A DNA stretch of 64,000 nucleotides from an uncultured Clostridia bacterium (lineage in GTDB: Bacteria; Bacillota; Clostridia; TANB77; CAG-508): contig CAKPKQ010000004.1 in assembly GCA_934167305.1 (NCBI GenBank), positions 3,255 through 67,254 of the forward strand, read 5' to 3'. The notes beneath the pieces were generated by a model. It saw nothing but the letters and a program-made list of their open reading frames with translations. It was not told the origin of the DNA and did not search any database. Each line of letters begins with the position of its first letter. Within the stretch, counting starts at the first letter, position 1. The position numbers and the translations under genes are program-made. This document shows positions 8,332 through 42,241 of this stretch, one piece after another.

Positions 8332-11300
8332 GTGGATGAATTAGAAATTTTTAACAAACTTAAAATTGGAATAGCATCAGATGAAAAAATTAGAGAATGG
8401 TCAAAAGGTGAAGTAAAAAAACCAGAGACTATTAATTATAGAACACTTAAACCAGAAAAAGATGGTCTATTTTGTGAGAGAATATTTGGACCAACAAAAG
8501 ACTGGGAATGTCATTGTGGTAAATATAAAAGAGTAAGATATAAAGGAATTGTATGTGACAGATGTGGTGTTGAAGTAACAAAATCTAAAGTTAGACGTGA
8601 AAGAATGGGACACATTGAGCTTGCTGCACCAGTTGCACATATATGGTACTTTAAAGGAATTCCAAGCAGAATTGGATTAATGCTTGATGTTTCTCCAAGA
8701 AGCTTAGAAAAAGTTATATATTTTGCATCATATATTGTAATTGATAAAGGAACTACAGATTTAACAGTAGCTCAAGTTTTATCAGAAAAAGAATATCGTG
8801 AAGCAGAAGAAAAATATGGCGCAGGTTCTTTTACAGCTAGAATGGGAGCAGAAGCAATACAAGAATTATTAGCAAAAGTTGATGTTGAGAAACTAGCTGA
8901 AAAACTTAAGAAAGAACTTGAAAAAGCAAGTGAACAAAAAAAGGCAAAATTAGTTAAAAGACTAGATACAGTTGAAGCATTTAGACTATCAGGAAATAAA
9001 CCTGAATGGATGATAATGAATGTAATTCCAGTTATTCCACCAGACTTAAGACCAATGGTACAATTAGATGGTGGTAGATTTGCTACATCAGATTTAAACG
9101 ATTTATACCGTAGAGTTATAAACAGAAATAATCGTTTAAAAAGATTATTAGAATTAGGTGCACCAGAAATTATTGTACGTAATGAAAAAAGAATGCTACA
9201 AGAAGCTGTTGATGCTTTAATTGATAACAGCAGACGTGGAAGACCAGTTACAGGTGCTGGTGGTAGAGCATTAAAATCTCTATCAGACTTATTAAAAGGA
9301 AAACAAGGTAGATTCCGTCAAAACTTATTAGGAAAACGTGTTGATTATTCAGGTCGTTCAGTTATAGTTGTTGGACCAGAACTTAAAATATATCAATGTG
9401 GTGTTCCAAAAGAAATGGCAGTTGAATTATTCAAACCATTTGTTATGAAAGAATTAGTTGGACGTGGAATTGCACATAATATTAAAAATGCTAAAAGAAT
9501 GGTTGAAAGATTAAGACCAGAAGTATGGGATATACTAGAGGATGTTATAAAAGACCACCCAGTATTATTAAACCGTGCTCCTACATTACATAGACTTGGT
9601 ATTCAAGCATTTGAACCAGTTTTAGTAGAAGGTAGAGCTATAAAATTGCACCCATTAGTATGTACAGCTTTCAATGCTGACTTCGACGGTGACCAAATGG
9701 CTATTCACTTACCATTATCACCAGAAGCACAAGCAGAAGCAAGATACTTAATGCTTTCTGTAAATAACCTATTAAAACCACAAGATGGTAAGCCAGTAAC
9801 AGTACCTACACAAGATATGATCTTAGGTGCTTACTACTTAACAATGGATGTTCTTGGTGAAGAAGGAGAAGGAAACTATTTCTCATCACCAGAAGAAGCT
9901 AAAATAGCATATTTTAACCATGACTTAGGTTTACATGCTAAAATATATGTAAGAATTCAAAAAGAAATAGATGGTAAATTAGAGACAAGAAAAGTTCAAA
10001 CAACAGTTGGTAGATTAATTTACAATGAGGGAATTCCACAAAATTTAGGATTTGTTGATAGAACAAAACCAGAAAACTTATTTGAACCAGAACTTAACTT
10101 TGCAGTATCTAAGAAAAACTTAGGAAAAATTATTGCAAAATCAATAAATGTAAATGGTTTAAGTGCAACAGCAGAACTACTAGACTATATTAAAGCAACA
10201 GGTTTCAAACATTCTACAACAGCTGGTATTACAGTTTCTGTTGATGATGTTAAAGTACCAGAAGCTAAAAAGAAAATTCTAGCTGATGCAAATGAACAAG
10301 TAAATAACGTATTAAAACAATATAAACGTGGTTTAATAACAGAGGATGAAAGATATAACTCAGTTATTAAGATTTGGGAAAAAGCAACAGATGAAGTTAC
10401 AGAGGCAATGAAAAGTAACTTTGATGATATGAACCCAGTATATATGATGAGTCAATCTGGAGCCAGAGGTAACATAAACCAATTAAGACAAATTGCTGGT
10501 ATGCGTGGTCTTATGGCTAGTACAACTGGTAAAACAGTAGAAATTCCTATTACATCTTCATTCCGTGAGGGTCTAGATGCACTAGAATACTTTATTTCTT
10601 CACACGGTGCTAGAAAAGGTTTAGCAGATACAGCTTTAAGAACAGCTGACTCTGGTTACTTAACAAGAAGACTTGTTGATGTTTCTCAAGACATTATAGT
10701 TCGTGAAGATGATTGCGGAACACATGAAGGTCTTACAGTATTTGATATTAAAGATGGAAACCAAATTGTTGAAAAAATGGATGAAAGACTAGTTGGCAGA
10801 TACCCATTAGAAGATATAATTAATCCTGAAACAAAAGAATTAATTGTTGATACAAATACAATGATTACAGATAAAATTGCTGAGAAAATTGTTACAGCAG
10901 GAATTGAAACAGTAAAAGTTCGTTCAGTATTAGGATGCCGTACAAAACATGGTGTTTGCCGTAAATGTTATGGTATGGGATTAGCAACTCGTGATGAAGT
11001 TAATATTGGTGAATCTGTTGGTATTATTGCAGCTCAATCAATTGGTGAGCCTGGTACACAGCTTACAATGAGAACTATTCACTCTGGTGGTGTTGCTGGT
11101 GTTGCCGATATTACTCAAGGTCTTCCTAGAGTTGAGGAGCTATTTGAAGCTCGTAAACCAAAGGGATTAGCAGTAATGACAGAAATAGATGGTAAAGTTA
11201 AAATTGTTGAAGATAAAAAGAAGAAAGAGATTGTTATTACATCTAAAGATGATTCAAAAACTTATGCAATACCATTTAGATCTAAATTACGTGTAAAAGA

Positions 11301-11865
11301 CGGAGATGAAGTAAAAGCAGGAGATCCATTAATAGAAGGTGCTTTAAACCCAGCTGAAATATTAGCAATTAAAGGGCCTGAAGGTGTATATGAATACTTA
11401 ATTCAAGAAGTTCAAAAAGTTTACCGTAACCAAGGTGTTGATATCAATGATAAACACATTGAAGTAATTGGTAGACAAATGCTTAAGAAGGTAAGAGTAG
11501 AAGATAATGGAGACACAGACATGTTTGCTGGATCATTAGTTGATATACATGAATTTGAGGACAAAAATGCATTAGTTGAAGCAGAAGGAAAACGTCCTGC
11601 AACAGGAAAACGTATATTACTAGGAATTACAAAAGCATCTTTAGCAACAGAAAGCTTCTTATCAGCTGCTTCATTCCAAGAAACAACAAGAGTATTAACA
11701 GAAGCTGCTGTTAAAGGTAAAGTTGATGACTTAATTGGATTAAAAGAAAACGTTATTATTGGTAAATTAATACCTGCAGGAACAGGCTTACCTGTTTATA
11801 AAAATACACACATTAATACAGAACAAAACGAAGAAGTTGAAGAAGAATCAACAAAGGTTGAATAA
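8332..11865 (+). CDS. rpoC: DNA-directed RNA polymerase subunit beta'
   Basis: Zn-finger [20 protein letters not shown] and catalytic [13 protein letters not shown] at 8332 follows a TAGGGGG RBS and gives a canonical N-terminus ([27 protein letters not shown]). The track ATG at 8290 is probably too early. Confidence 0.97.
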
Positions 11866-11871
11866 AACTAA

Positions 11872-11906
11872 AAAACAAACCGTCAGTAATGACGGTTTGT
11901 TTTTTG
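11872..11906 (+). terminator. rho-independent terminator of rpoC
   Basis: AAACAAACCGTC / GACGGTTTGTTT stem with an AGTAAT loop and a following T-run. Confidence 0.85.
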
Positions 11907-11909
11907 CTG

Positions 11910-12239
11910 TTAGGCCACAGTCTGTAACCTAAAAACAAGGGAATATGCGCTGATACCGCGAATTTGATAGCCAACCATTTCGGCTTCTTCGGCAATCAGA
12001 AAACCTGACTGTGTCCAAAAGTTTCTTAAACTCTTGAGAAATAATTCGGACTGATAAAACTTCAAACTGACTGTGGGTATGCTGAAAATCATGTCATATG
12101 TATCTTTATCGATACCACTGGTCCAAGTTCCAAGCGAAATATTGTACTTTTGGCAGGTACAAAGAATTGCCTGGTTTGCTCGATAAAGGTCGGGAGTTTT
12201 AATCGGCAAAAGCCGATCATGAAGTAAATTTACGGTCAT
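11910..12239 (-). CDS. Hypothetical 109-aa protein with atypical G+C, possibly a truncated acetyltransferase-like remnant
   Basis: ATG at 12239 follows an AAAGGAG RBS. One 60-nt spot count (11941-12000) gives about 48% G+C. The C-terminal GFLIAEEAEMVGYQI resembles a GNAT beta-strand, but the catalytic half is absent. The ORF ends abutting the rpoC terminator. Confidence 0.35.
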   Translation of the reverse strand: MTVNLLHDRLLPIKTPDLYRANQAILCTCQKYNISLGTWTSGIDKDTYDMIFSIPTVSLKFYQSELFLKSLRNFWTQSGFLIAEEAEMVGYQIRGISAYSLVFRLQTVA

Positions 12240-12422
12240 TGATATTCTCCTTTTTGTATTTTTGCTCAAAAGAGCATACTAATATTATATCATAATTTAC
12301 AAAAAATGTAAAGCAATACGAAATAAGGTGGAAAAAAACCAGTATAATAGCAATATAGGCTGGAAAGTATATAAAAATTGTGCTATAATATAAAAGTCAC
12401 AAAATTAAAGGAGGATTCGTAA

Positions 12423-13457
12423 ATGGCAAATGCTAAAAACGAACGGAAAAAGAAGCTAAGCAAAATCATAGTGGCAATTGTAGTTATAGTGCTTGCACTA
12501 ACATTACAAGCAATTGTTACTAACCAGCAAGAAACAGTAGCACCAAATCAATCGAGTGAGCAACAACAACCAAAAGAAGAAGTAACACCAAATCAATCAA
12601 GTGAACAGCAACAACCAGAAGAAGAAACAGTAACAAATAATGTGGACGGATCTATTGTATTACATATGATAGATGTTGGACAAGCAGATAGTTTTTTGTT
12701 TGTACAAAACGATAAGGTAGCTCTTGTAGATTGTGGTACACGGTCTACAGGAAAAGATGCAGTAGAATACATAAAAGACTTAGGCATAACCAAAATTGAT
12801 TATGTATTTGGTACACATCCACATGATGATCATATGGGCGGAATGTATGACATAATAACAAACTTTGAAATTGGTAAAATTATTTTGCCAAAAGTAGAAA
12901 ATGGTCAAGTAACCACAAACTGGTATATAAAGCTTATGAAGGAAATATCAGAAGGAGGCTATCAAGTCGAATATTCACAAACAGGAAATACTTATCAATT
13001 AGGAAATGCTGTAATTGAAATACTTTGGCAAAGTGAGGGAACACAGAGTAATATTAATAATTACTCAAACATTATGAAAGTTTCTTTTGGAGAAATGGAC
13101 ATATTGATGACAGGTGATGCCGAGACTGAAATTGAAGAAGAGGCATTAGATTCTAAAATAGAGCTTGATGCAGAGATTCTTAAAGTTGGACATCATGGAA
13201 GTGACACTTCAAGTAGTCAAGAATTTTTGAATGTAGTGGATCCTGAATATGGCTTAATATCATCAAAGATTGGCAACAAGTATAATCATCCGACAGAATC
13301 TACAATGCAAAAACTTGAAAATATGGGGGTAATTGTTTATAGAACTGATGAATGTGGCTCTGTAATTGCGACTATAACAGCAAATAACATAACATTTAAC
13401 TGTGAACCAGGAGACTATTTAAGTGGACCTGAGTTAGAGGAGGAAAAAGCGGCATGA
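12423..13457 (+). CDS. ComEC/Rec2-related metallo-beta-lactamase-fold hydrolase with N-terminal membrane anchor
   Basis: HPHDDHMGG and VGHHGS motifs, an N-terminal TM and a Gln/Glu-rich tandem-repeat linker. Confidence 0.8.
   Translation: MANAKNERKKKLSKIIVAIVVIVLALTLQAIVTNQQETVAPNQSSEQQQPKEEVTPNQSSEQQQPEEETVTNNVDGSIVLHMIDVGQADSFLFVQNDKVALVDCGTRSTGKDAVEYIKDLGITKIDYVFGTHPHDDHMGGMYDIITNFEIGKIILPKVENGQVTTNWYIKLMKEISEGGYQVEYSQTGNTYQLGNAVIEILWQSEGTQSNINNYSNIMKVSFGEMDILMTGDAETEIEEEALDSKIELDAEILKVGHHGSDTSSSQEFLNVVDPEYGLISSKIGNKYNHPTESTMQKLENMGVIVYRTDECGSVIATITANNITFNCEPGDYLSGPELEEEKAA
12541..12630 (+). repeat. Tandem 45-nt coding repeat (2 copies) in the linker of the MBL protein
   Basis: CACCAAATCAATCGAGTGAGCAACAACAACCAAAAGAAGAAGTAA is followed by a near-identical copy. 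It encodes PNQSSEQQQP(K/E)EE twice. Confidence 0.9.
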
Positions 13458-35667: not shown

Positions 35668-36609
35668 ATGGTAGAAGATAATGAAATAAAGGCAACTATA
35701 TCGCCTTTTGCAATTAGAGAGGGAGAAGTAAAAGTATTTGATGGTAAAGATGGCTATATTTCAATGAATCAAATTATTCATAGAATAAATATAGGGCATA
35801 TTACTGACTTGCACTTTTCTATTTTAGAACTAGTAAATGAATTTGAATTTATTACCTCAAGACAATTACTTCAAATGCTAGAATGGAAAGGAATAGAAGT
35901 AGGCTCTCAAGATAAATTAAATAATAAATTAGAGCAATTGGTAAAAACAAAAATATTAACAAGATATTATTTCAATTCAGAAGATGGAAAAGGAATTTAT
36001 AGAATTTATTGTTTAGAAAAAATGGGAAAGTATTTGCTTAACTCACGTGGAGTTGAATGTAAATGGCAACCTACAGATAATACAAAACCAGTTGCAATGA
36101 TAAAGAAAAGATTGGCTGGAAATCAAACATTAATTGCCTATTTAAGAAAGGTAAAAGCTTTTGATTCATATGTTCCAAAGCCAAGTTTTACAGCTAAACA
36201 AGCTGGAAAAGTATTTAAAGCAAGTGGAGGAAGTGTAAAATTAACCAAAAATAATAAATCAATTGAATTTGTATTTGAAGTTGTACGTAGAGAACCAGAT
36301 TGGGAGAAAAAGTTGGTTGACAAAATGAGATTATACAAAGACTTTTACGAAAACTTCCAAACAGGTGACTCTGGCTATACAACTATTCCACAATTGATAA
36401 TAATATGTGAAGATGACAAACATATGGCAGAAAGCTTTAAAGCTATAGTAATGAATAAAGTTGAAATATCAAATATAAAACTATATTTTACAACAGATTT
36501 AAGACAAAACGAAGAAACGTTAGAAAGAACATTAGTACATTTCGGAATAGACCCAGAAACTAAAAAATATAGAATGGAAAACATTGAAGTAAAATTATTA
36601 GGAATATAA
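35668..36609 (+). CDS. Replication-relaxation family protein (wHTH + PD-(D/E)xK-like fold), plasmid/ICE-type
   Basis: N-terminal winged-helix-like region (LHFSILELVNEFEFITSRQLLQML) and overall length and architecture of the Replic_Relax family. Assignment by eye. Confidence 0.45.
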   Translation: MVEDNEIKATISPFAIREGEVKVFDGKDGYISMNQIIHRINIGHITDLHFSILELVNEFEFITSRQLLQMLEWKGIEVGSQDKLNNKLEQLVKTKILTRYYFNSEDGKGIYRIYCLEKMGKYLLNSRGVECKWQPTDNTKPVAMIKKRLAGNQTLIAYLRKVKAFDSYVPKPSFTAKQAGKVFKASGGSVKLTKNNKSIEFVFEVVRREPDWEKKLVDKMRLYKDFYENFQTGDSGYTTIPQLIIICEDDKHMAESFKAIVMNKVEISNIKLYFTTDLRQNEETLERTLVHFGIDPETKKYRMENIEVKLLGI

Positions 36610-36699: not shown

Positions 36700-37467
36700 T
36701 TAGAAATTCCATCTTTTTTCTATACTTTCTAGATTATCCCAAACAGCATTAAAATTATCTATATTATGTGTATTATGTTTTTCCTCGATACTAATTCTAT
36801 TATATAATAGTATAAACATTAGACAGAATACTTTTCTTATATTTTCGTTATGATTATATAGAAATGTTATAAGTTCATTAAAGTCTATATTTTTAGTTAT
36901 ATTATAATCAGAAAATATAAAATATATAAAGTCATATATGGCATCACCTATAATAGTTCTAGGATCTATTATACCCACAATTTTATTGTCTAAGTAAACA
37001 AGATTAAAACTTCCTAAATCTCCATGAATTAACTTTGGAATTATACAAAAAGTTTGCATTAATTCTAATTTATTTAATACTTTATGAGTTTTAGATAAAT
37101 ACTTGTCAGACATGTATTTTTTTTTGCTTTGAAATTCTGAGTATAAGAAGTCGTTCCAGCTTTTTTTTGGAGTTAATATATCTCCATATCTTCCATTCTC
37201 CATGATAATATAATTATTAATCATATCATATACATCTAATATAAGCATTTGACAATTATTTTCATAATCTAATCTGTTACCATATATATAATTGTAAATT
37301 ACAAAATTATTTTCTGTGTTTTCTTTTAGAATTTTCTCTACTGGCAATATATTAGAATAACTCTTTATAAAAAACTGTTCAGAAATAAGGGTTGTTCGCG
37401 GAGCAACTTTTACAATGTATTTTCCATTTACTAAAATTATTTTATTTTTTATTTTTATCACTCCCAT
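36700..37467 (-). CDS. Aminoglycoside-phosphotransferase-fold (APH/choline-kinase-like) kinase
   Basis: HGDLGSFN catalytic loop and IIDPRTIIGDAIYD metal-binding segment. Overlaps the upstream gene by 26 nt and is extremely A+T-rich. Confidence 0.7.
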   Translation of the reverse strand: MGVIKIKNKIILVNGKYIVKVAPRTTLISEQFFIKSYSNILPVEKILKENTENNFVIYNYIYGNRLDYENNCQMLILDVYDMINNYIIMENGRYGDILTPKKSWNDFLYSEFQSKKKYMSDKYLSKTHKVLNKLELMQTFCIIPKLIHGDLGSFNLVYLDNKIVGIIDPRTIIGDAIYDFIYFIFSDYNITKNIDFNELITFLYNHNENIRKVFCLMFILLYNRISIEEKHNTHNIDNFNAVWDNLESIEKRWNF

Positions 37468-38485
37468 TTTTCAAGGTTAAGTTTATGAAATTAAATAATT
37501 CATCAATATTTTTTTCATTTTGATAAATTTTATATATTGATATTTGTTGAGTATCAAGTAAAGGAATACTTGGGTTTTCAAATATGCTAGAAAGATATCT
37601 TATAGTGTCATACGAACCGCATCTTCTATTTCTTTGAAGAACTTCAGCTTTTTGGTTTTCAGTCAATTCTATTATGCGAATATGTTCAAGTTCAGGAAAA
37701 TAAAGAGGAATTATAATAAAACTTACTTTTACCTTATTTATTAATTTTATATTATAGATATCTTGTAACTCATTAACCTTTATATTAAACTTTTTTTGTG
37801 AATATAAATGAAAATTAAAATCTGATACATATAAGAATTTATCTGCGAATTCTGTTTTTTCCATTATAGCTTGCTTAATATTAGGATTTAACACTGATGA
37901 TAAAGTACCTAAACGTATACCGACACGTGAAGGAGAACCTACTGCAATAAGATTATTGTTTTCTTTTTTTAAAGCTAAATGTGAATTACTAACGAAATTA
38001 AATCCAGATTGAAGAAGATAATTTAGTATTGTTGTTTTTCCAGAATTTCTTTCTCCTATTATAACTATGCCACTGGAATTTTTTTCTACACAAGCTGCAT
38101 GAAAATATGAATAATTTGACCTTTCTAAAAATAAACCAAATATACTTATTAAGTTCTCACCAATAAATTGAATAAGATTATCTGTAATATTATTATATAG
38201 AATAAAAATCTCATCTTTTTTGCAAGATATAATAATACCGTCCCTATCTTTTAAATATATAAAGTTATTAACAGATGATGATTTATGAGAACTGATTAAA
38301 CTCTCGTATTTGTATTTATTTATGTAGATATATAAATTAAAATTAACTTTTAGAGAATTTGTATCAAAAGTATAATAATTACCATATTCCATTTTTAATT
38401 TTTTTAATAACTCGTCAACACAGATAATCTTAATAGATATGCCCTCATTTTTTACATAATTGATTTTCACTTTTTCTTCTTTCAT
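37442..38485 (-). CDS. HPr-kinase-related P-loop protein (HprK C-terminal-like)
   Basis: HAACVEKNSSGIVIIGERNSGKTTILNYLLQSG matches the HprK-type H-x-(gvll)-G-x-SG-x-GK-[ST]T core. An AAGAGGAA RBS lies inside the end of the rSAM reading frame. Confidence 0.6.
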   Translation of the reverse strand: MKEEKVKINYVKNEGISIKIICVDELLKKLKMEYGNYYTFDTNSLKVNFNLYIYINKYKYESLISSHKSSSVNNFIYLKDRDGIIISCKKDEIFILYNNITDNLIQFIGENLISIFGLFLERSNYSYFHAACVEKNSSGIVIIGERNSGKTTILNYLLQSGFNFVSNSHLALKKENNNLIAVGSPSRVGIRLGTLSSVLNPNIKQAIMEKTEFADKFLYVSDFNFHLYSQKKFNIKVNELQDIYNIKLINKVKVSFIIIPLYFPELEHIRIIELTENQKAEVLQRNRRCGSYDTIRYLSSIFENPSIPLLDTQQISIYKIYQNEKNIDELFNFINLTLKNGSDKNKK

Positions 38486-38642
38486 ATTCCTCTTTCATCC
38501 CGTTTTTTGTTAGATAATCATTTATATACTTTTTTATTTTTAACTTTGCAGAACACCAACTATCTTCTGCAAAATTATAATCATTATGCAATATATAAGC
38601 ATTGGCTGGACAGCCGTCCCATGCATTCACTATAAATTTCAC
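38445..38642 (-). pseudogene. Out-of-frame C-terminal continuation of the radical SAM/SPASM gene
   Basis: This frame reads ...WDGCPANAYILHNDYNFAEDSWC.... Joined to CGTCEIYSEC it completes CX2CX5CX3C-gap-C. Confidence 0.7.
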
Positions 38643-39597
38643 ATGTTCCGCATTTTCCAGATTTTATTTGCTCATTTCTATAATCAACAATCTTTTTGAT
38701 TTTTTCTAATAAAATAGCAATATCTATGTCATTGATATTTCCATAAAAAAATTCTTTATTATTATATGTTCTATTACATGAATATAAATTCCCATCTGAA
38801 TCTAGTGAAATAAAGTTTAAGGCACATTTACCAGAAGTTGCACAAGATTTATTACTATATGAACTATCTAGACATTTTACAAATTCATCGTAAATTTCTT
38901 TTATTTGAGTGAGACGTACATTGTCATCTGAAGTATCCTCTATCCATATATTAAATAATTTTTTAAAAAATTTAAAGTAGCTTTCATTAGTCATAAAATT
39001 GATATCCATAGAATTATTGCACTTAAATGCAGGACGGATATTACAATTTAATTTATTGTTACGTAAAAATTCATATAATTCGTCCTCTTTATTAAGTATT
39101 TGGTTAGTTAAAGTCATTATTATTCCAAAATTAATGTTTTCTTTCTTTAATAAATCAATTTTTGATAAAACATCTGTAAATGAATTTTTATTATTTTTAT
39201 ATACTCTAAATTTATTTGTTATTTCATCATAACCGTCAAGACTTATTCCTACATGGACATTATATTTTTTTAGGATAGCTGTGATATTTTTATTAAGTAA
39301 TGTTGCATTGGTTTGAATACTAAATCTTGCGTTAGGGTATAATTTTTTTATTTGCCCTAACAGTGCATCATAATTTTGATAGTTAATAATTAATGGTTCT
39401 CCACCATGAAATATTATTTCACTTGAAGCATTAGTATTAGGCCAAAGCTTTTTTATGTATTTAATTATGTTTGGAATTTTTGATGCAAATTCTTCATTTT
39501 CTTTTATTAAATTAGTGTGGTTATTCTTATCATAACAATATTTACAATTTAAATTGCAAGAATTAGTTGATCTAAATATAATTGTAAAATTTCTCAT
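38584..39597 (-). CDS. Radical SAM enzyme with SPASM domain (frame as annotated stops inside the SPASM motif)
   Basis: CNLNCKYC (CX3CX2C) near the N-terminus, GGEPL, and SPASM part 1 CALNFISLDSDGNLYSC (CX10GX4C). The ATG at 39597 follows a GAAAGGA RBS. Confidence 0.85.
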   Translation of the reverse strand: MRNFTIIFRSTNSCNLNCKYCYDKNNHTNLIKENEEFASKIPNIIKYIKKLWPNTNASSEIIFHGGEPLIINYQNYDALLGQIKKLYPNARFSIQTNATLLNKNITAILKKYNVHVGISLDGYDEITNKFRVYKNNKNSFTDVLSKIDLLKKENINFGIIMTLTNQILNKEDELYEFLRNNKLNCNIRPAFKCNNSMDINFMTNESYFKFFKKLFNIWIEDTSDDNVRLTQIKEIYDEFVKCLDSSYSNKSCATSGKCALNFISLDSDGNLYSCNRTYNNKEFFYGNINDIDIAILLEKIKKIVDYRNEQIKSGKCGTCEIYSECMGRLSSQCLYIA

Positions 39598-39663
39598 AAC
39601 TTTGTATCCTTTCACATATAAAATAGAGCCCACTATATAATATAATGGGCATGCTTTGTGGTG

Positions 39664-39840
39664 TTAATAGCTATCGTCATATCTTGAAGTGTCATCATAA
39701 TGAGAGTCAAAATATCTATCATCAGCTCGATCACTATGTCTATCATGATAGTAAGAATCATTGTAATTATCTCTATGAACTAACTCACTATTAAAAGTAA
39801 AATTGCCTTGAGAGAAAAATTCTTCTAATCTATTACTCAT
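39664..39840 (-). CDS. 58-aa candidate RiPP precursor peptide (not in the ORF track)
   Basis: The ATG at 39840 lies 7 nt after an AAAGGAG RBS. Translation: MSNRLEEFFSQGNFTFNSELVHRDNYNDSYYHDRHSDRADDRYFDSHYDDTSRYDDSY*. It lies 25 nt after the upstream gene and 66 nt before the rSAM start. Confidence 0.65.
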   Translation of the reverse strand: MSNRLEEFFSQGNFTFNSELVHRDNYNDSYYHDRHSDRADDRYFDSHYDDTSRYDDSY

Positions 39841-39865
39841 AATTACTCCTTTCTATTACTAAAAT

Positions 39866-42241
39866 TTATTTATTTTTTTTCTTTAGATTAACAACAATTG
39901 CATTTTCATTATCAAATAAGTATTTAGAATCAGATGTGTCTGTTTGAATAGGGTTAAATTCACGGTCTATATCATAATTATCATTATTTGCTGTAACTGC
40001 TGCAAAATCACCTTTTTTTGTTTTTAAAGCTTTTTTAGCAGCTGATTGTGTATCAGTAATTCCACTAACAAATTTGGTAAAATTGTAGTTTTTAGTTTTT
40101 TGTACTTCTTTATATTTTGATTCCATAAAATCAACTTTACCTTTATCAACAGCACTTTTTCCACCTAAGTCTTTTACTTTGTAAATAACTTGTTTTCCTT
40201 TTAAAGACATAATCTTGCCTTTAGCAAAGTTAGGTTGCCACTTAAATTTAATTCCACTCTTTTTTGCATCATATTCCACTTTATCACTATTATAATTGTC
40301 AGTCCAAGACCATTCTCTTTTATCTTGCATTGCTGTTTCCCACCATTCAACATCTTCAGGTGTCGCATTACCGAAAATTATTTTATTAACTGTGTTTGAA
40401 AGAATTAAGTTCTTGTAATAATCACCTCTAGCATCAGCAGATAAATCTCCTTTTAATTGTGTTAAGTTTTGAGAATCTAATACTGTTGCAACATTATATT
40501 TTCTGTATAAAGTATATATTGGTTCAGTAGCTTTACAAATATATGCAGGAAAATCATCTATATATAAGAAGTGAGGAATACGTGTACTGTCATTTCCTGG
40601 TCTAGCAAGTATTGATTGTTGCATTAACAATAAGAAGAATAAACCAAATGCTTTGTGAGCAGTTTCTCCTAAATCACCTCTACGTGTACATACTAAAGTT
40701 ACTTGACCTTCTGATAATATTTTATCATATTCTAGGTTGTTAGAACGATTACATAATACAGATTTTACACCAGGGTAACGTAGTAAGTTATCAATTTCTG
40801 CAGAAGCAGTTGTTGTTGAACGTTGAGCATTTAATAAATTAGGGCTATCTGGGTAAAAGTTATTTTCAAAATATTTAATTAAAATACGATATTTTGAAGC
40901 TAACTCAGGAATTTCTTTCATTTTATCAACTAAATCAACAATTAAACTGAAATCTGTAAGCATATCTAACATATCTTCTAAGTTAGGTAGTAAGCCATCA
41001 TGTTCTAATGGATACATTTCTTTTAACAATATTGCTATATTTTCAATCATTTGAACTGCTTCATTTTCTCTAAAAGCAAGTTCTGTATCTGGTCTACTAT
41101 GAATAAATAATCCTTTTAATACTGAAGATACAGCTAAACCTGTTTTTATAGGATCTTTATAAACAAATGGGTTTAAACCAGGTGAATCTGCACGATTTGG
41201 ATCAACTATATTTACTGGAATATGGTAATTGTTTGCAACTTTTGCAATCTTTTCAACTGATTCATGCTCTGCTGAAATATAAGTAATACCCATATTACGG
41301 TAAATAATTTTGTCTCCAGAACTTGAAATTATCATTTTTTTCATATAGCTTTTATAAGTATCAATTTTTTCCTCTTTAGGAATTAACATATCTAAAGAAA
41401 AATGTTCATTTATATAATCATTATCATATGGGCAACTTAAAGATGCAAGGCCAGTTCTTAATGCTGTATATCCCATTTCTTTTGAAACTTCTTTAAAAAA
41501 TGATTTTCTTTCAATATCTCTTGCAAGCATTGGCTCATAAATCATTGTGGTTTTACCTGAGCCAGAAACACCAACAACTAATAGTGATTCATAACGTTTC
41601 TTTTCTGGAATACATACATCTTGACCACTTTCACTATCCATACAAACTTTAACTTCGCAAGTATATGCTCCATGAGCTTCTTTATCAGATGAAAGCTTAA
41701 TTCCACCATAATCGAAAATAGAATCACGAATATCTTTAACATCATTAATACCAAAAATCAACCATTTTATTACTTTATAGAAGGTAACTAAAGGAATATA
41801 TACCCCTATAGCTGTAAAAGCAGGTTTAAATAAGTAAAAGAACTCTCTTGCTAATTGAGGGTAATTTGGTAATGATAAAAGGTTTATCCATACAATTTGG
41901 TTTAGCCATTGAACAACAGCTGACACAATTAAAATGTAAAATGAAACTATAAATGTATGAAAAAATCTTAATTTATTAACATCTGCTTTTGCAAACTTTG
42001 ATCCTCCTGAAAAGAAAAATGCAAATGTCATACAAGCAAATGCAAAGAAATATTTTATTGGACCCCAATAACTAAAACCTACACCTGTAAAAATTATAAA
42101 CAATAATTCAACAATTCTATCTACTAATATATAAGCAGAAATTAAAGTTAAAATATAGGTTACAAATGTATTTCTGTCAGTTTTTAAAACTTTTAAAAAT
42201 TTATCAAATAGTTTCAAAAAATTCACCACTTTCATTTTCAT
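39866..42241 (-). CDS. Type IV secretion coupling-protein-like (TraD/TraG/VirD4-type) membrane ATPase
   Basis: About 5 N-terminal TMs, Walker A GVSGSGKTT, Walker-B-like HFLYIDDF and the downstream T4CP-like segment VATVLDSQNLTQL. Confidence 0.6.
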   Translation of the reverse strand: MKMKVVNFLKLFDKFLKVLKTDRNTFVTYILTLISAYILVDRIVELLFIIFTGVGFSYWGPIKYFFAFACMTFAFFFSGGSKFAKADVNKLRFFHTFIVSFYILIVSAVVQWLNQIVWINLLSLPNYPQLAREFFYLFKPAFTAIGVYIPLVTFYKVIKWLIFGINDVKDIRDSIFDYGGIKLSSDKEAHGAYTCEVKVCMDSESGQDVCIPEKKRYESLLVVGVSGSGKTTMIYEPMLARDIERKSFFKEVSKEMGYTALRTGLASLSCPYDNDYINEHFSLDMLIPKEEKIDTYKSYMKKMIISSSGDKIIYRNMGITYISAEHESVEKIAKVANNYHIPVNIVDPNRADSPGLNPFVYKDPIKTGLAVSSVLKGLFIHSRPDTELAFRENEAVQMIENIAILLKEMYPLEHDGLLPNLEDMLDMLTDFSLIVDLVDKMKEIPELASKYRILIKYFENNFYPDSPNLLNAQRSTTTASAEIDNLLRYPGVKSVLCNRSNNLEYDKILSEGQVTLVCTRRGDLGETAHKAFGLFFLLLMQQSILARPGNDSTRIPHFLYIDDFPAYICKATEPIYTLYRKYNVATVLDSQNLTQLKGDLSADARGDYYKNLILSNTVNKIIFGNATPEDVEWWETAMQDKREWSWTDNYNSDKVEYDAKKSGIKFKWQPNFAKGKIMSLKGKQVIYKVKDLGGKSAVDKGKVDFMESKYKEVQKTKNYNFTKFVSGITDTQSAAKKALKTKKGDFAAVTANNDNYDIDREFNPIQTDTSDSKYLFDNENAIVVNLKKKNK

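Follow-up and report, generated by a model that had tools for sequence, protein, structure and literature searches.

A gene for a Tyr-x-Asp repeat peptide beside a frameshifted radical SAM/SPASM maturase gene in an uncultured Clostridia bacterium: a probable triceptide precursor

The peptide gene and its conserved core

We analysed a stretch of 64,000 nucleotides (the window) from an uncultured Clostridia bacterium of the GTDB lineage TANB77; CAG-508 (assembly GCA_934167305.1, contig CAKPKQ010000004.1, positions 3,255 to 67,254 of the forward strand). It carries a gene for a 58-residue peptide whose C-terminal part is built from Tyr-x-Asp and His-x-Asp triplets; the gene lies immediately 5′ of a gene for a radical S-adenosylmethionine (SAM) enzyme of the SPASM type, with a hairpin and a T-tract between the two. 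The features of this locus, all on the minus strand, are as follows:

39664..39840, minus strand: precursor peptide gene, 58 aa plus stop, leader MSNRLEEFFSQGNFTFNSELV and core HRDNYNDSYYHDRHSDRADDRYFDSHYDDTSRYDDSY (from the translation, the homologues and purifying selection on the core)
39778..39840, minus strand: leader, residues 1-21, variable in the alignment outside the N-terminal motif M-N/S-x-R-[LV]-x-E-[LF]
39667..39777, minus strand: core, residues 22-58, roughly tetrad repeats x-[Y/H]-x-D with five Y-x-D and three H-x-D; core Asp at residues 24, 28, 33, 37, 41, 45, 49/50 and 56
39846..39851, minus strand: ribosome-binding site AAGGAG, 5-6 nt 5′ of the peptide ATG, read from the sequence
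39628..39650, minus strand: GC-anchored hairpin GCCCATTATATTATATAGTGGGC followed by a T-tract, attenuator- or terminator-like, between the peptide stop and the maturase start
38584..39597, minus strand: truncated gene of the radical SAM/SPASM maturase, 337 aa when started at ATG 39597, ending in ...CGTCEIYSECMGRLSSQCLYIA and a stop (Pfam, NCBIfam and family alignment)
about 38616, minus strand: inferred 1-nt insertion (C) in ATG GGA C GGC TGT CCA, from three-frame translations
38445..38615, minus strand: C-terminal remnant of the maturase in the +1 frame, GCPANAYILHNDYNFAEDSWCSAKLKIKKYINDYLTKNGMKEEYERRKSENQLCKK and a stop, 56 codons open to the ancestral stop (compare the intact homologue P0019, ...GGCPANAYAIHNDPNMPEDTWCIAKYKIRKYVDNYLEKNGIKKDYEELKYGRNLCKK)

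A first-pass annotation, made from the sequence alone, had already placed a precursor-like peptide at 39664-39840, and its coordinates and translation are exact; the strand, which it omitted, is minus (the plus strand holds only stops there). The composition it gave for residues 22-58 also holds (11 Asp, 7 Tyr, 5 Arg, 5 Ser and 4 His, with no Cys, Lys, Trp, Gly or Pro), as do its eight [Y/H]-x-D triplets; its count of five for [D/S]-x-Y should be seven, since DNY and SYY had been overlooked. Eight [Y/H]-x-D triplets compare with a mean of 3.2 in shuffles of the same 37 residues (P=4e-4 for at least eight), and no other stretch of the window, in any of the six frames, has more than three. The border it drew between leader and core, at residue 21/22, agrees with the conservation described below (a variable leader and a near-invariant core), and the gene order, with the hairpin and T-tract before the radical SAM/SPASM gene, bears out a peptide of precursor type. 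A hairpin of differing sequence is found at the same place in five related loci (L007, L010, L012, L014, and L020), that is, in six of the eight peptide-maturase gaps that we folded, the window included. Such a hairpin between precursor and enzyme genes is the usual layout for making more precursor than enzyme. Upstream, a co-oriented TraG-like gene (791 aa) stops 25 nt before the peptide gene, and a promoter scan gave sites no more numerous than in shuffles. We also observed that R38 of the peptide is encoded by CGA (codon 38, 39726-39728), a codon that occurs only twice among the ~400 Arg codons counted across 18 genes of the window.

A word-seeded search of 5.8 billion proteins returned 17 homologues of the peptide (58-70 aa, 60-98% identity), and a search of 1.84 billion representatives with a hidden Markov model returned 31 related peptides; the peptide of the window's own species is present in more than 150 metagenome contigs. 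In the alignment, core residues 22-58 are almost invariant (HRDNYNDSYYHDxYHDxYDDRYFDSHYDDTSRYDDSY), and even divergent peptides (P0284-P0299) bear the leader motif N-x-R-[VLI]. Over the 37 core codons, the window and L012 show 11 synonymous versus 3 non-synonymous differences, most of these codons being only two-fold degenerate. Since the differences between species are mostly synonymous, the amino acid sequence of the core is under selection, and a chance open reading frame (ORF) or a purely nucleotide-level element is excluded. The first-pass annotation had named absence of the ORF from relatives, or its loss of amino acid conservation there, as the finding that would overturn its proposal; that finding was not made, as homologues exist and their cores diverge mainly at synonymous sites.

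The feature most consistently shared within the family is Tyr with Asp at +2: this holds for 282 of the 335 Tyr residues (84%) across 39 family peptides, with the middle residue free. Exactly seven Y-x-D units are found in 29 of the 39 (range 5-9 in single-unit peptides), and Cys occurs 0-1 times per peptide, at non-conserved positions. A C-terminal Tyr is found in 19 of the 39, all of them from the window's subclade; the others end in Arg, Lys, Ala, Asn, Asp or other residues. His positions and H-x-Y spacing are unconserved in L014, L020, and L022. The window peptide, with five Y-x-D, stands at the family minimum, matched only by the same-species variant P0001, and its core deviates from the consensus HDxYHDxYDD by Y35H and Y39A. 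Residue 39 is Ala in the window and in P0001, and Tyr in P0138, the commonest variant of the same species (122 contigs). One further precursor, P0287 (144 aa; L024:358-1616), consists of two leader-core units in tandem, whose tails are rich in Lys.

No Pfam or NCBIfam model matches the peptide. The core patterns [YA]DDRYFDS and YDDTSRYD are absent from 185,579 GTDB species representatives, barring a match in Paractinoplanes that we rejected as a false positive (SRYDDT repeats within a 571-aa membrane protein).

A metagenomic enzyme family and its frameshifted member

The maturase carries the Pfam domains Radical_SAM and Fer4_12. Its family keeps the CxxxCxxC motif, eight SPASM-type Cys and an invariant C-N-I-R-P motif, and the alignment gives it no N-terminal RiPP recognition element (RRE) domain (RiPP: a peptide made on the ribosome and modified post-translationally). 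With the repaired enzyme as query, we retrieved ~80 clusters (at least 35% identity, more than 220 bits), and the next scores fall below 170 bits, so the family has a sharp edge. All of these clusters are metagenomic and unnamed; cluster look-ups for the peptide, the enzymes and NCBI-sourced radical SAM relatives returned only names of the 'hypothetical protein' type, the radical SAM relatives being without accessions. The best NCBIfam profiles for the enzyme are DynA (182 bits), the anaerobic sulfatase-maturating enzyme (anSME), YhhB, PapB, AmcB, DarE, GrrM/OscB, CbpB, FxsB, and XyeB, mostly cyclophane formers with anSME second, and all score far below the family cut-offs. The PDB matches come in the order anSME (E=1.5e-27), CteB, and the triceptide synthase ChlB. 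PqqE and MftC are not among the 25 best NCBIfam matches, and no YxdB model is among the enzyme's NCBIfam matches.

We read the DNA of ten lineages (the window species, L012, L023, L007, L010, L014, L020, L016/L021, L018, and L022), whose radical SAM identities run from 68% to 32%, and in all ten a YxD-repeat peptide adjoins this radical SAM family:

L023: enzyme 61% identity, 58-aa peptide
L007 and L010: enzymes 56-59% identity, peptides of 59-60 aa
L014: enzyme 50% identity, peptide ...RYDDNTYSDSYEDRYDDMYHDTYDDRYHDMYDDGR
L020: enzyme 45% identity, peptide ...RYGDGDVYDDGYLDGDRYPDGYLDDDRYVDGYRDN
L021 (7080-8061): enzyme 43% identity, 69-aa peptide after a ClpP-like gene
L016 (8073-9119): enzyme 41% identity, repeat fused to the C-terminus of a ClpP-like protein
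L018: enzyme 36% identity, peptide ...WDDSYNDGYYHDTYHDVYNDIYDDYSDDRYHDA
L022: enzyme 32% identity, peptide ...SYHDGYFDGCYHDDYSDGSYQDDYSDGSYHDHYTDD

L016 and L021 represent one subclade in which the YxD repeat comes after a gene for a ClpP/SDH-type protease. The most divergent complete cluster, that of L018 (peptide, radical SAM enzyme and a protein X described below), lies in an apparent mobile or defence island (L018:1-6300 and 9582-13100) that also encodes three tyrosine recombinases, a DDE transposase, and proteins with TIR and FRG domains.

In the window the maturase gene is frameshifted. The insertion interrupts CX2CX5CX3C after 'CMG', where it gives a CGG codon; shifted one base on, the sequence reads GCPANAYILHNDYNFAEDSWCSAKLKIKKYINDYLTKNG...LCKK and ends at the ancestral stop. 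Intact homologues have SEC[HK]GGCPAN at the lesion, in the context C..C.....C.GGCPAN.Y...(F/W)C.AK, with the last Cys 18-19 aa after GGC. The truncated product keeps CxxxCxxC and six of the eight SPASM-type Cys; by the alignment it lacks the fourth Cys of CX2CX5CX3C, so that this motif is not intact in the window copy, and the last Cys. We take these two to be one ligand of each of the two auxiliary 4Fe-4S clusters, as in anSME structures. A read error is ruled out: the truncated product recurs in six same-species contigs (L001-L006) and in each full-length sequence of the 90% cluster, which spans more than 140 contigs. In naming what would overturn its proposal, the first-pass annotation had asked for an intact maturase; that the window copy is frameshifted was not visible to it.

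Within the sampled population of the species the locus is nearly clonal (0-3 differences in 1153 nt), and an intact remnant behind the lesion is consequently no sign of continued translation. The CGG codon made at the shift site occurs in 0 of the 10,496 codons of 18 window genes; such absence is expected for any out-of-frame codon, yet CGG here is also reminiscent of the slow codon of known +1 recoding sites. A second species, L012, has a maturase (L012:2423-3277) with Phe at two conserved SPASM Cys (HSF, YSFNRT), next to a 58-aa peptide whose core equals the family consensus. The L012 enzyme is nearer to the intact P0019 (76%) than to that of the window (70%), so this damage arose independently of the window frameshift. 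Because the insertion removes SPASM ligands and two of the seven Tyr positions have been lost from the peptide, we infer that maturase activity has been lost in the window: the sequence most likely records an early stage of decay, with a peptide that is uncyclised or poorly cyclised here. As natural 'knock-outs', the window frameshift and the L012 Cys-to-Phe changes allow a comparison with sister loci that are intact (L023, P0019), and this can reveal whether the peptide functions independently of cyclisation.

Proposed cross-link chemistry and its alternatives

In triceptides, a radical SAM/SPASM enzyme (three-residue cyclophane-forming enzyme, 3-CyFE) ties an aromatic ring to the Cβ two residues on, within Ω1-X2-X3 motifs of the precursor (PMC11499958). 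Conserved motifs of this kind are what we find in the peptide, as eight [Y/H]-x-D in the window and as the Tyr-Asp spacing throughout the family. The nearest precedent is the YxdA/YxdB system: a review, in a brief account crediting Sugiyama et al. (J Am Chem Soc 2022, 144:11580), describes a C3(Tyr)-Cβ(Asp) linkage made by YxdB (WP_226048651.1), with Y-x-D motifs in the precursor and a SPASM radical SAM partner without an RRE (PMC11002830). The window's family shares the Y-x-D precursor motif and the enzyme type, and the reported linkage is the one that our motif statistics call for. It differs in being metagenomic and unnamed, in a comparison with YxdB that is by description only, in the frameshift of the window's maturase, and in the further genes of its clusters, namely the four-Cys TIM-barrel protein X, two kinases (HprK-like and APH-like) and the ClpP-like protease of one subclade. 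We found no description of these extra cluster genes in the literature searched.

Because YxdB is reported to join Tyr-C3 to Asp-Cβ on such a motif, the ORF is most likely a YxdA-type triceptide precursor, and we hold with moderate confidence that it is a genuine RiPP precursor gene of this kind that works as follows. In the intact relatives, the short leader (MNxR[LV]xE[LF]...) would present the 37-residue core, with its ~seven Y-x-D units, to the adjacent radical SAM/SPASM enzyme; the enzyme would abstract a hydrogen from Asp-Cβ, and this carbon would then be bonded to Tyr-C3 two positions upstream. The finished peptide would carry a row of three-residue cyclophanes in which the carboxylates and phenols are retained. 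In the window's subclade the HprK-like and APH-like proteins probably phosphorylate Ser, Thr or Tyr of the peptide, as HPr-kinase-like RiPP kinases are known from paeninodin, where PadeK adds phosphate to a Ser of the still linear precursor, ahead of maturation (PMC9266682).

Of the three chemistries put forward in the first-pass annotation (triceptide, PqqE-type and MftC-type), the triceptide one fits best, given the 84% of Tyr with Asp at +2, the cyclophane-maturase profiles and the Tyr-Asp precedent as the review relates it; without Cys in the core, the thioethers of sactipeptides and ranthipeptides lack their residue, as the annotation had said. The enzyme resembles the cyclophane, dynobactin and darobactin maturases (best-scoring profiles DynA, YhhB, AmcB, DarE, GrrM/OscB, FxsB, and XyeB; ChlB, 9gm3, as a PDB match), which make an i to i+2 cross-link on Ω1-X2-X3, often several per peptide (PMC11499958). 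Unlike them, it scores far under their cut-offs (e.g., 182 versus 450 bits for DynA). In the known cyclophane systems X3 is Asn, Lys, Arg or Ser and its partner Trp, Phe or His; in the window's family the pair is nearly always Tyr-Asp, repeated ~7 times along an extended acidic array. A relation of the enzyme to the 3-CyFEs may be read from its best profiles, which are cyclophane formers yet below cut-off, with anSME second; the window gene is frameshifted.

Several points weigh against this proposal. The Tyr-Asp C-C link is borrowed from a one-sentence account of YxdB in the review (PMC11002830), and the tie to YxdB is by motif and description, not by sequence. All NCBIfam scores for the enzyme lie far below family cut-offs, and the window's cluster shows neither a protease nor an exporter. 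Another cross-link is possible in the YxD family, since DynA, the top profile, makes a His-N to Tyr-Cβ link as well. Lastly, the core is perfectly kept in two lineages with a damaged-looking maturase (the window species and L012), which could mean that the peptide has a role independent of the radical SAM enzyme or that the truncated enzyme still works; given the tiny diversity, the frameshift may also be too recent to bear on dispensability.

We regard it as unlikely that the same precursor and enzyme follow another radical chemistry, such as a DynA-type His-N to Tyr-Cβ link, a DarE-type ether, or an anSME-like oxidation of Asp or Ser (formylglycine or aminomalonate). The ranking of DynA and anSME as first and second NCBIfam matches would suit it, as would the abundant and conserved His of the core (YYHD, xYHD) and anSME as the closest solved structure by sequence; 3-CyFEs are also reportedly promiscuous towards formylglycine and aminomalonate. 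The enzyme shares with anSME (PDB 4k36-4k39) its size, the lack of an N-terminal RRE and the eight-Cys SPASM layout, but anSME turns a sulfatase Ser or Cys into formylglycine, and here there is no sulfatase and a dedicated peptide of 55-72 aa stands at every locus. Against such chemistry, Tyr with Asp at +2 is the only family-wide invariant of the peptide, the His positions and H-x-Y spacing not being kept in three of the lineages, and the published enzyme, in the review's account, makes exactly the Tyr-Asp link on YxD (PMC11002830).

Nor do we think it likely that the window's maturase still works and cyclises the peptide, either as the truncated protein (CX2CX5CX7C, in which a new Cys stands eight residues beyond the third motif Cys) or through a +1 shift at GGA-CGG-C. 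In favour of activity are a 337-codon ORF free of further lesions across more than 140 contigs, a 56-codon remnant that stays open in the +1 frame to the ancestral stop, a CGG of the 'hungry' codon type of known +1 recoding sites, and a core peptide that is otherwise conserved. However, with at most three differences in 1153 nt an intact remnant is expected even in a dead gene, a P-site slip from GGA to GAC is unfavourable, and the site lacks a homopolymer. The lost Cys moreover align with what we take to be one ligand of each auxiliary cluster in SPASM domains of the anSME type, and the loss of Tyr at two motif positions of the window peptide is consistent with relaxed selection.

A cofactor precursor in the manner of pyrroloquinoline quinone (PQQ) or mycofactocin, with a PqqE-type Glu-Tyr link or an MftC-type decarboxylation of the C-terminal Tyr, is improbable. 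As in those systems (PqqA/PqqE, MftA/MftC), a short peptide with an invariant Tyr-containing core adjoins a SPASM gene in a chromosomal cluster without an exporter; the leader is variable, inheritance is vertical among housekeeping genes, no exporter or protease is seen in the window's subclade, and peptides of that subclade end in Tyr. The first-pass annotation had drawn both comparisons, and neither is supported for the family. The C-terminal Tyr is missing in 20 of the 39 peptides, and there is no conserved C-terminal Val-Tyr; the core has no conserved Glu, and hence no Glu-x3-Tyr or other conserved Glu...Tyr pair. We found no PqqD/MftB-like partner, RRE domain or pqq neighbours in the loci, and PqqE and MftC stay outside the 25 best profiles, as noted above.

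Least probable of all is an unmodified small acidic protein rich in His, Tyr and Asp (e.g., metal-binding, or a partner of the TraG-like ATPase) that merely sits beside the radical SAM gene, or a chance ORF: the persistence of the core beside damaged maturases and the co-oriented TraG-like gene 25 nt upstream fit such a protein, but the same radical SAM family stands alongside in every lineage read, even where the TraG-like gene is lacking (L016, L018, L021, and L022), and synonymous-dominated divergence excludes chance.

If the triceptide assignment is right, triceptides gain a sizeable and entirely metagenomic branch (~80 enzyme clusters and ~30 peptide clusters at 50% identity) with unusually dense arrays of ~seven Tyr-Asp cyclophanes, which would be raw material for enzyme and peptide engineering. 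It would open no new class, since the core chemistry has, by the review's account, already been published.

Neighbouring genes and possible roles

Four further genes of the window flank the peptide and the maturase:

37442..38485, minus strand: HprK-like P-loop protein, 347 aa, Walker A GERNSGKTT, putative peptide kinase
36700..37467, minus strand: protein of the APH/fructosamine-kinase fold, 255 aa, catalytic loop HGDLGSFN, putative second kinase
39866..42241, minus strand: membrane ATPase of the TraG/VirD4 type, 791 aa, co-oriented with the peptide gene and directly upstream of it; its homologues have the domains TraG-D_C and T4SS-DNA_transf
35668..36609, plus strand: Replic_Relax-like winged-helix protein, 313 aa, possible regulator (Pfam PF13814 exactly at the cut-off)

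Both kinase-fold genes are intact in the window. The HprK-like protein matches HprK_rel_B (E=4e-9; 36 bits against a cut-off of 200) and, in the PDB, Hpr(Ser) kinase 3tqf (E=0.003); an AlphaFold prediction from the single sequence gave no usable model (pLDDT 32). Its gene is syntenic in L010, L023, and L014 and split in L007, as it also is in one strain of the window's species (L002); the Walker A is kept in the window, L023, and L010 and lost in L014. As a P-loop HprK-like protein within a RiPP cluster, with HprK_rel_B as its best profile, it resembles PadeK/ThcoK and the TIGR04352/TIGR04355 kinases; unlike these, the window match is weak, the L014 homologue has no Walker A and there is no lasso machinery. 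The APH-like protein has weak Pfam (APH, Fructosamin_kin) and PDB matches, is syntenic in L007, L010, and L023, and keeps the HGD...N loop.

The TraG-like protein shares 49-79% identity with its homologues in L007, L012, L014, L020, and L023, and the Replic_Relax-like protein 57-87% with those in L007, L010, and L023. The pair is confined to the spoVB-hup subclade, where in several species it lies at one chromosomal position flanked by pseudouridine synthase genes and by spoVB-hup, and we do not count it among the core parts of the system because it is absent from L016, L018, L021, and L022. No other conjugation genes lie near the two, which may be a domesticated or relic mobilisation pair.

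Beside the YxD radical SAM gene, seven of the loci encode a protein of ~300 aa, which we call X:

L014:8136-9062, protein X
L007:4943-5863, protein X
L010:6989-7897, protein X
L016:5298-6200, protein X
L018:8073-8987, protein X
L021:4316-5224, protein X
L022:1716-2645, protein X

X is a closed family of 55 clusters, all metagenomic and found only with the YxD system. A 44-sequence alignment shows C185, C189, and C199 to be invariant, and C192 is invariant among seven sequences and nearly so overall, which gives a C-x3-C...C motif. Protein X has no Pfam match even at E up to 10 and no PDB sequence match; AlphaFold predicts a TIM barrel with confidence (pLDDT 92.8). With this model Foldseek placed the U32 peptidase Mk0906 first (E=7e-6, TM 0.45/0.55), with generic TIM barrels just behind, and hhalign against a bona fide U32 protein gave a probability of 0.14; given these weak TM scores and the negative hhalign, a U32/anaerobic-hydroxylase function for X is a weak lead only. 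X is absent from the window, L020, and L023. We rejected its loss as part of the window's decay, since L023 has the same gene order without X together with an intact maturase; the absence of X therefore predates the frameshift.

The locus is chromosomal, as the window contains ORFs of rpoB/rpoC size and related loci are flanked by rpsB-tsf and spoVB-hup; megablast of the 5.7-kb locus against plasmids gave no match. The organism has a GC content of ~27%, PADLOC assigned no defence system, and Rfam found one tRNA only.

More speculatively, the YxD peptides may be multiply cyclised and phosphorylated (or otherwise further modified) intracellular acidic peptides with a physiological role, such as metal binding or as a cofactor, rather than antibiotics, and such a role could partly survive the loss of cyclisation. 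We put this forward tentatively, with the following features in mind: the orphan X, the two kinase-fold proteins, and the ClpP-like protease of one subclade (sometimes fused to the peptide); vertical inheritance at one chromosomal site; no exporter in the window's subclade; a number of units fixed at ~7; and a core invariant despite maturase damage. For new tailoring steps, the recurrent protein X and the pair of kinases offer concrete candidates.

A minor observation concerns L016, where the annotation gives ribosomal proteins L20 and S2 (L016:2744-4319) an additional Rho_N domain, a fusion that is unusual among ribosomal proteins of the housekeeping kind.

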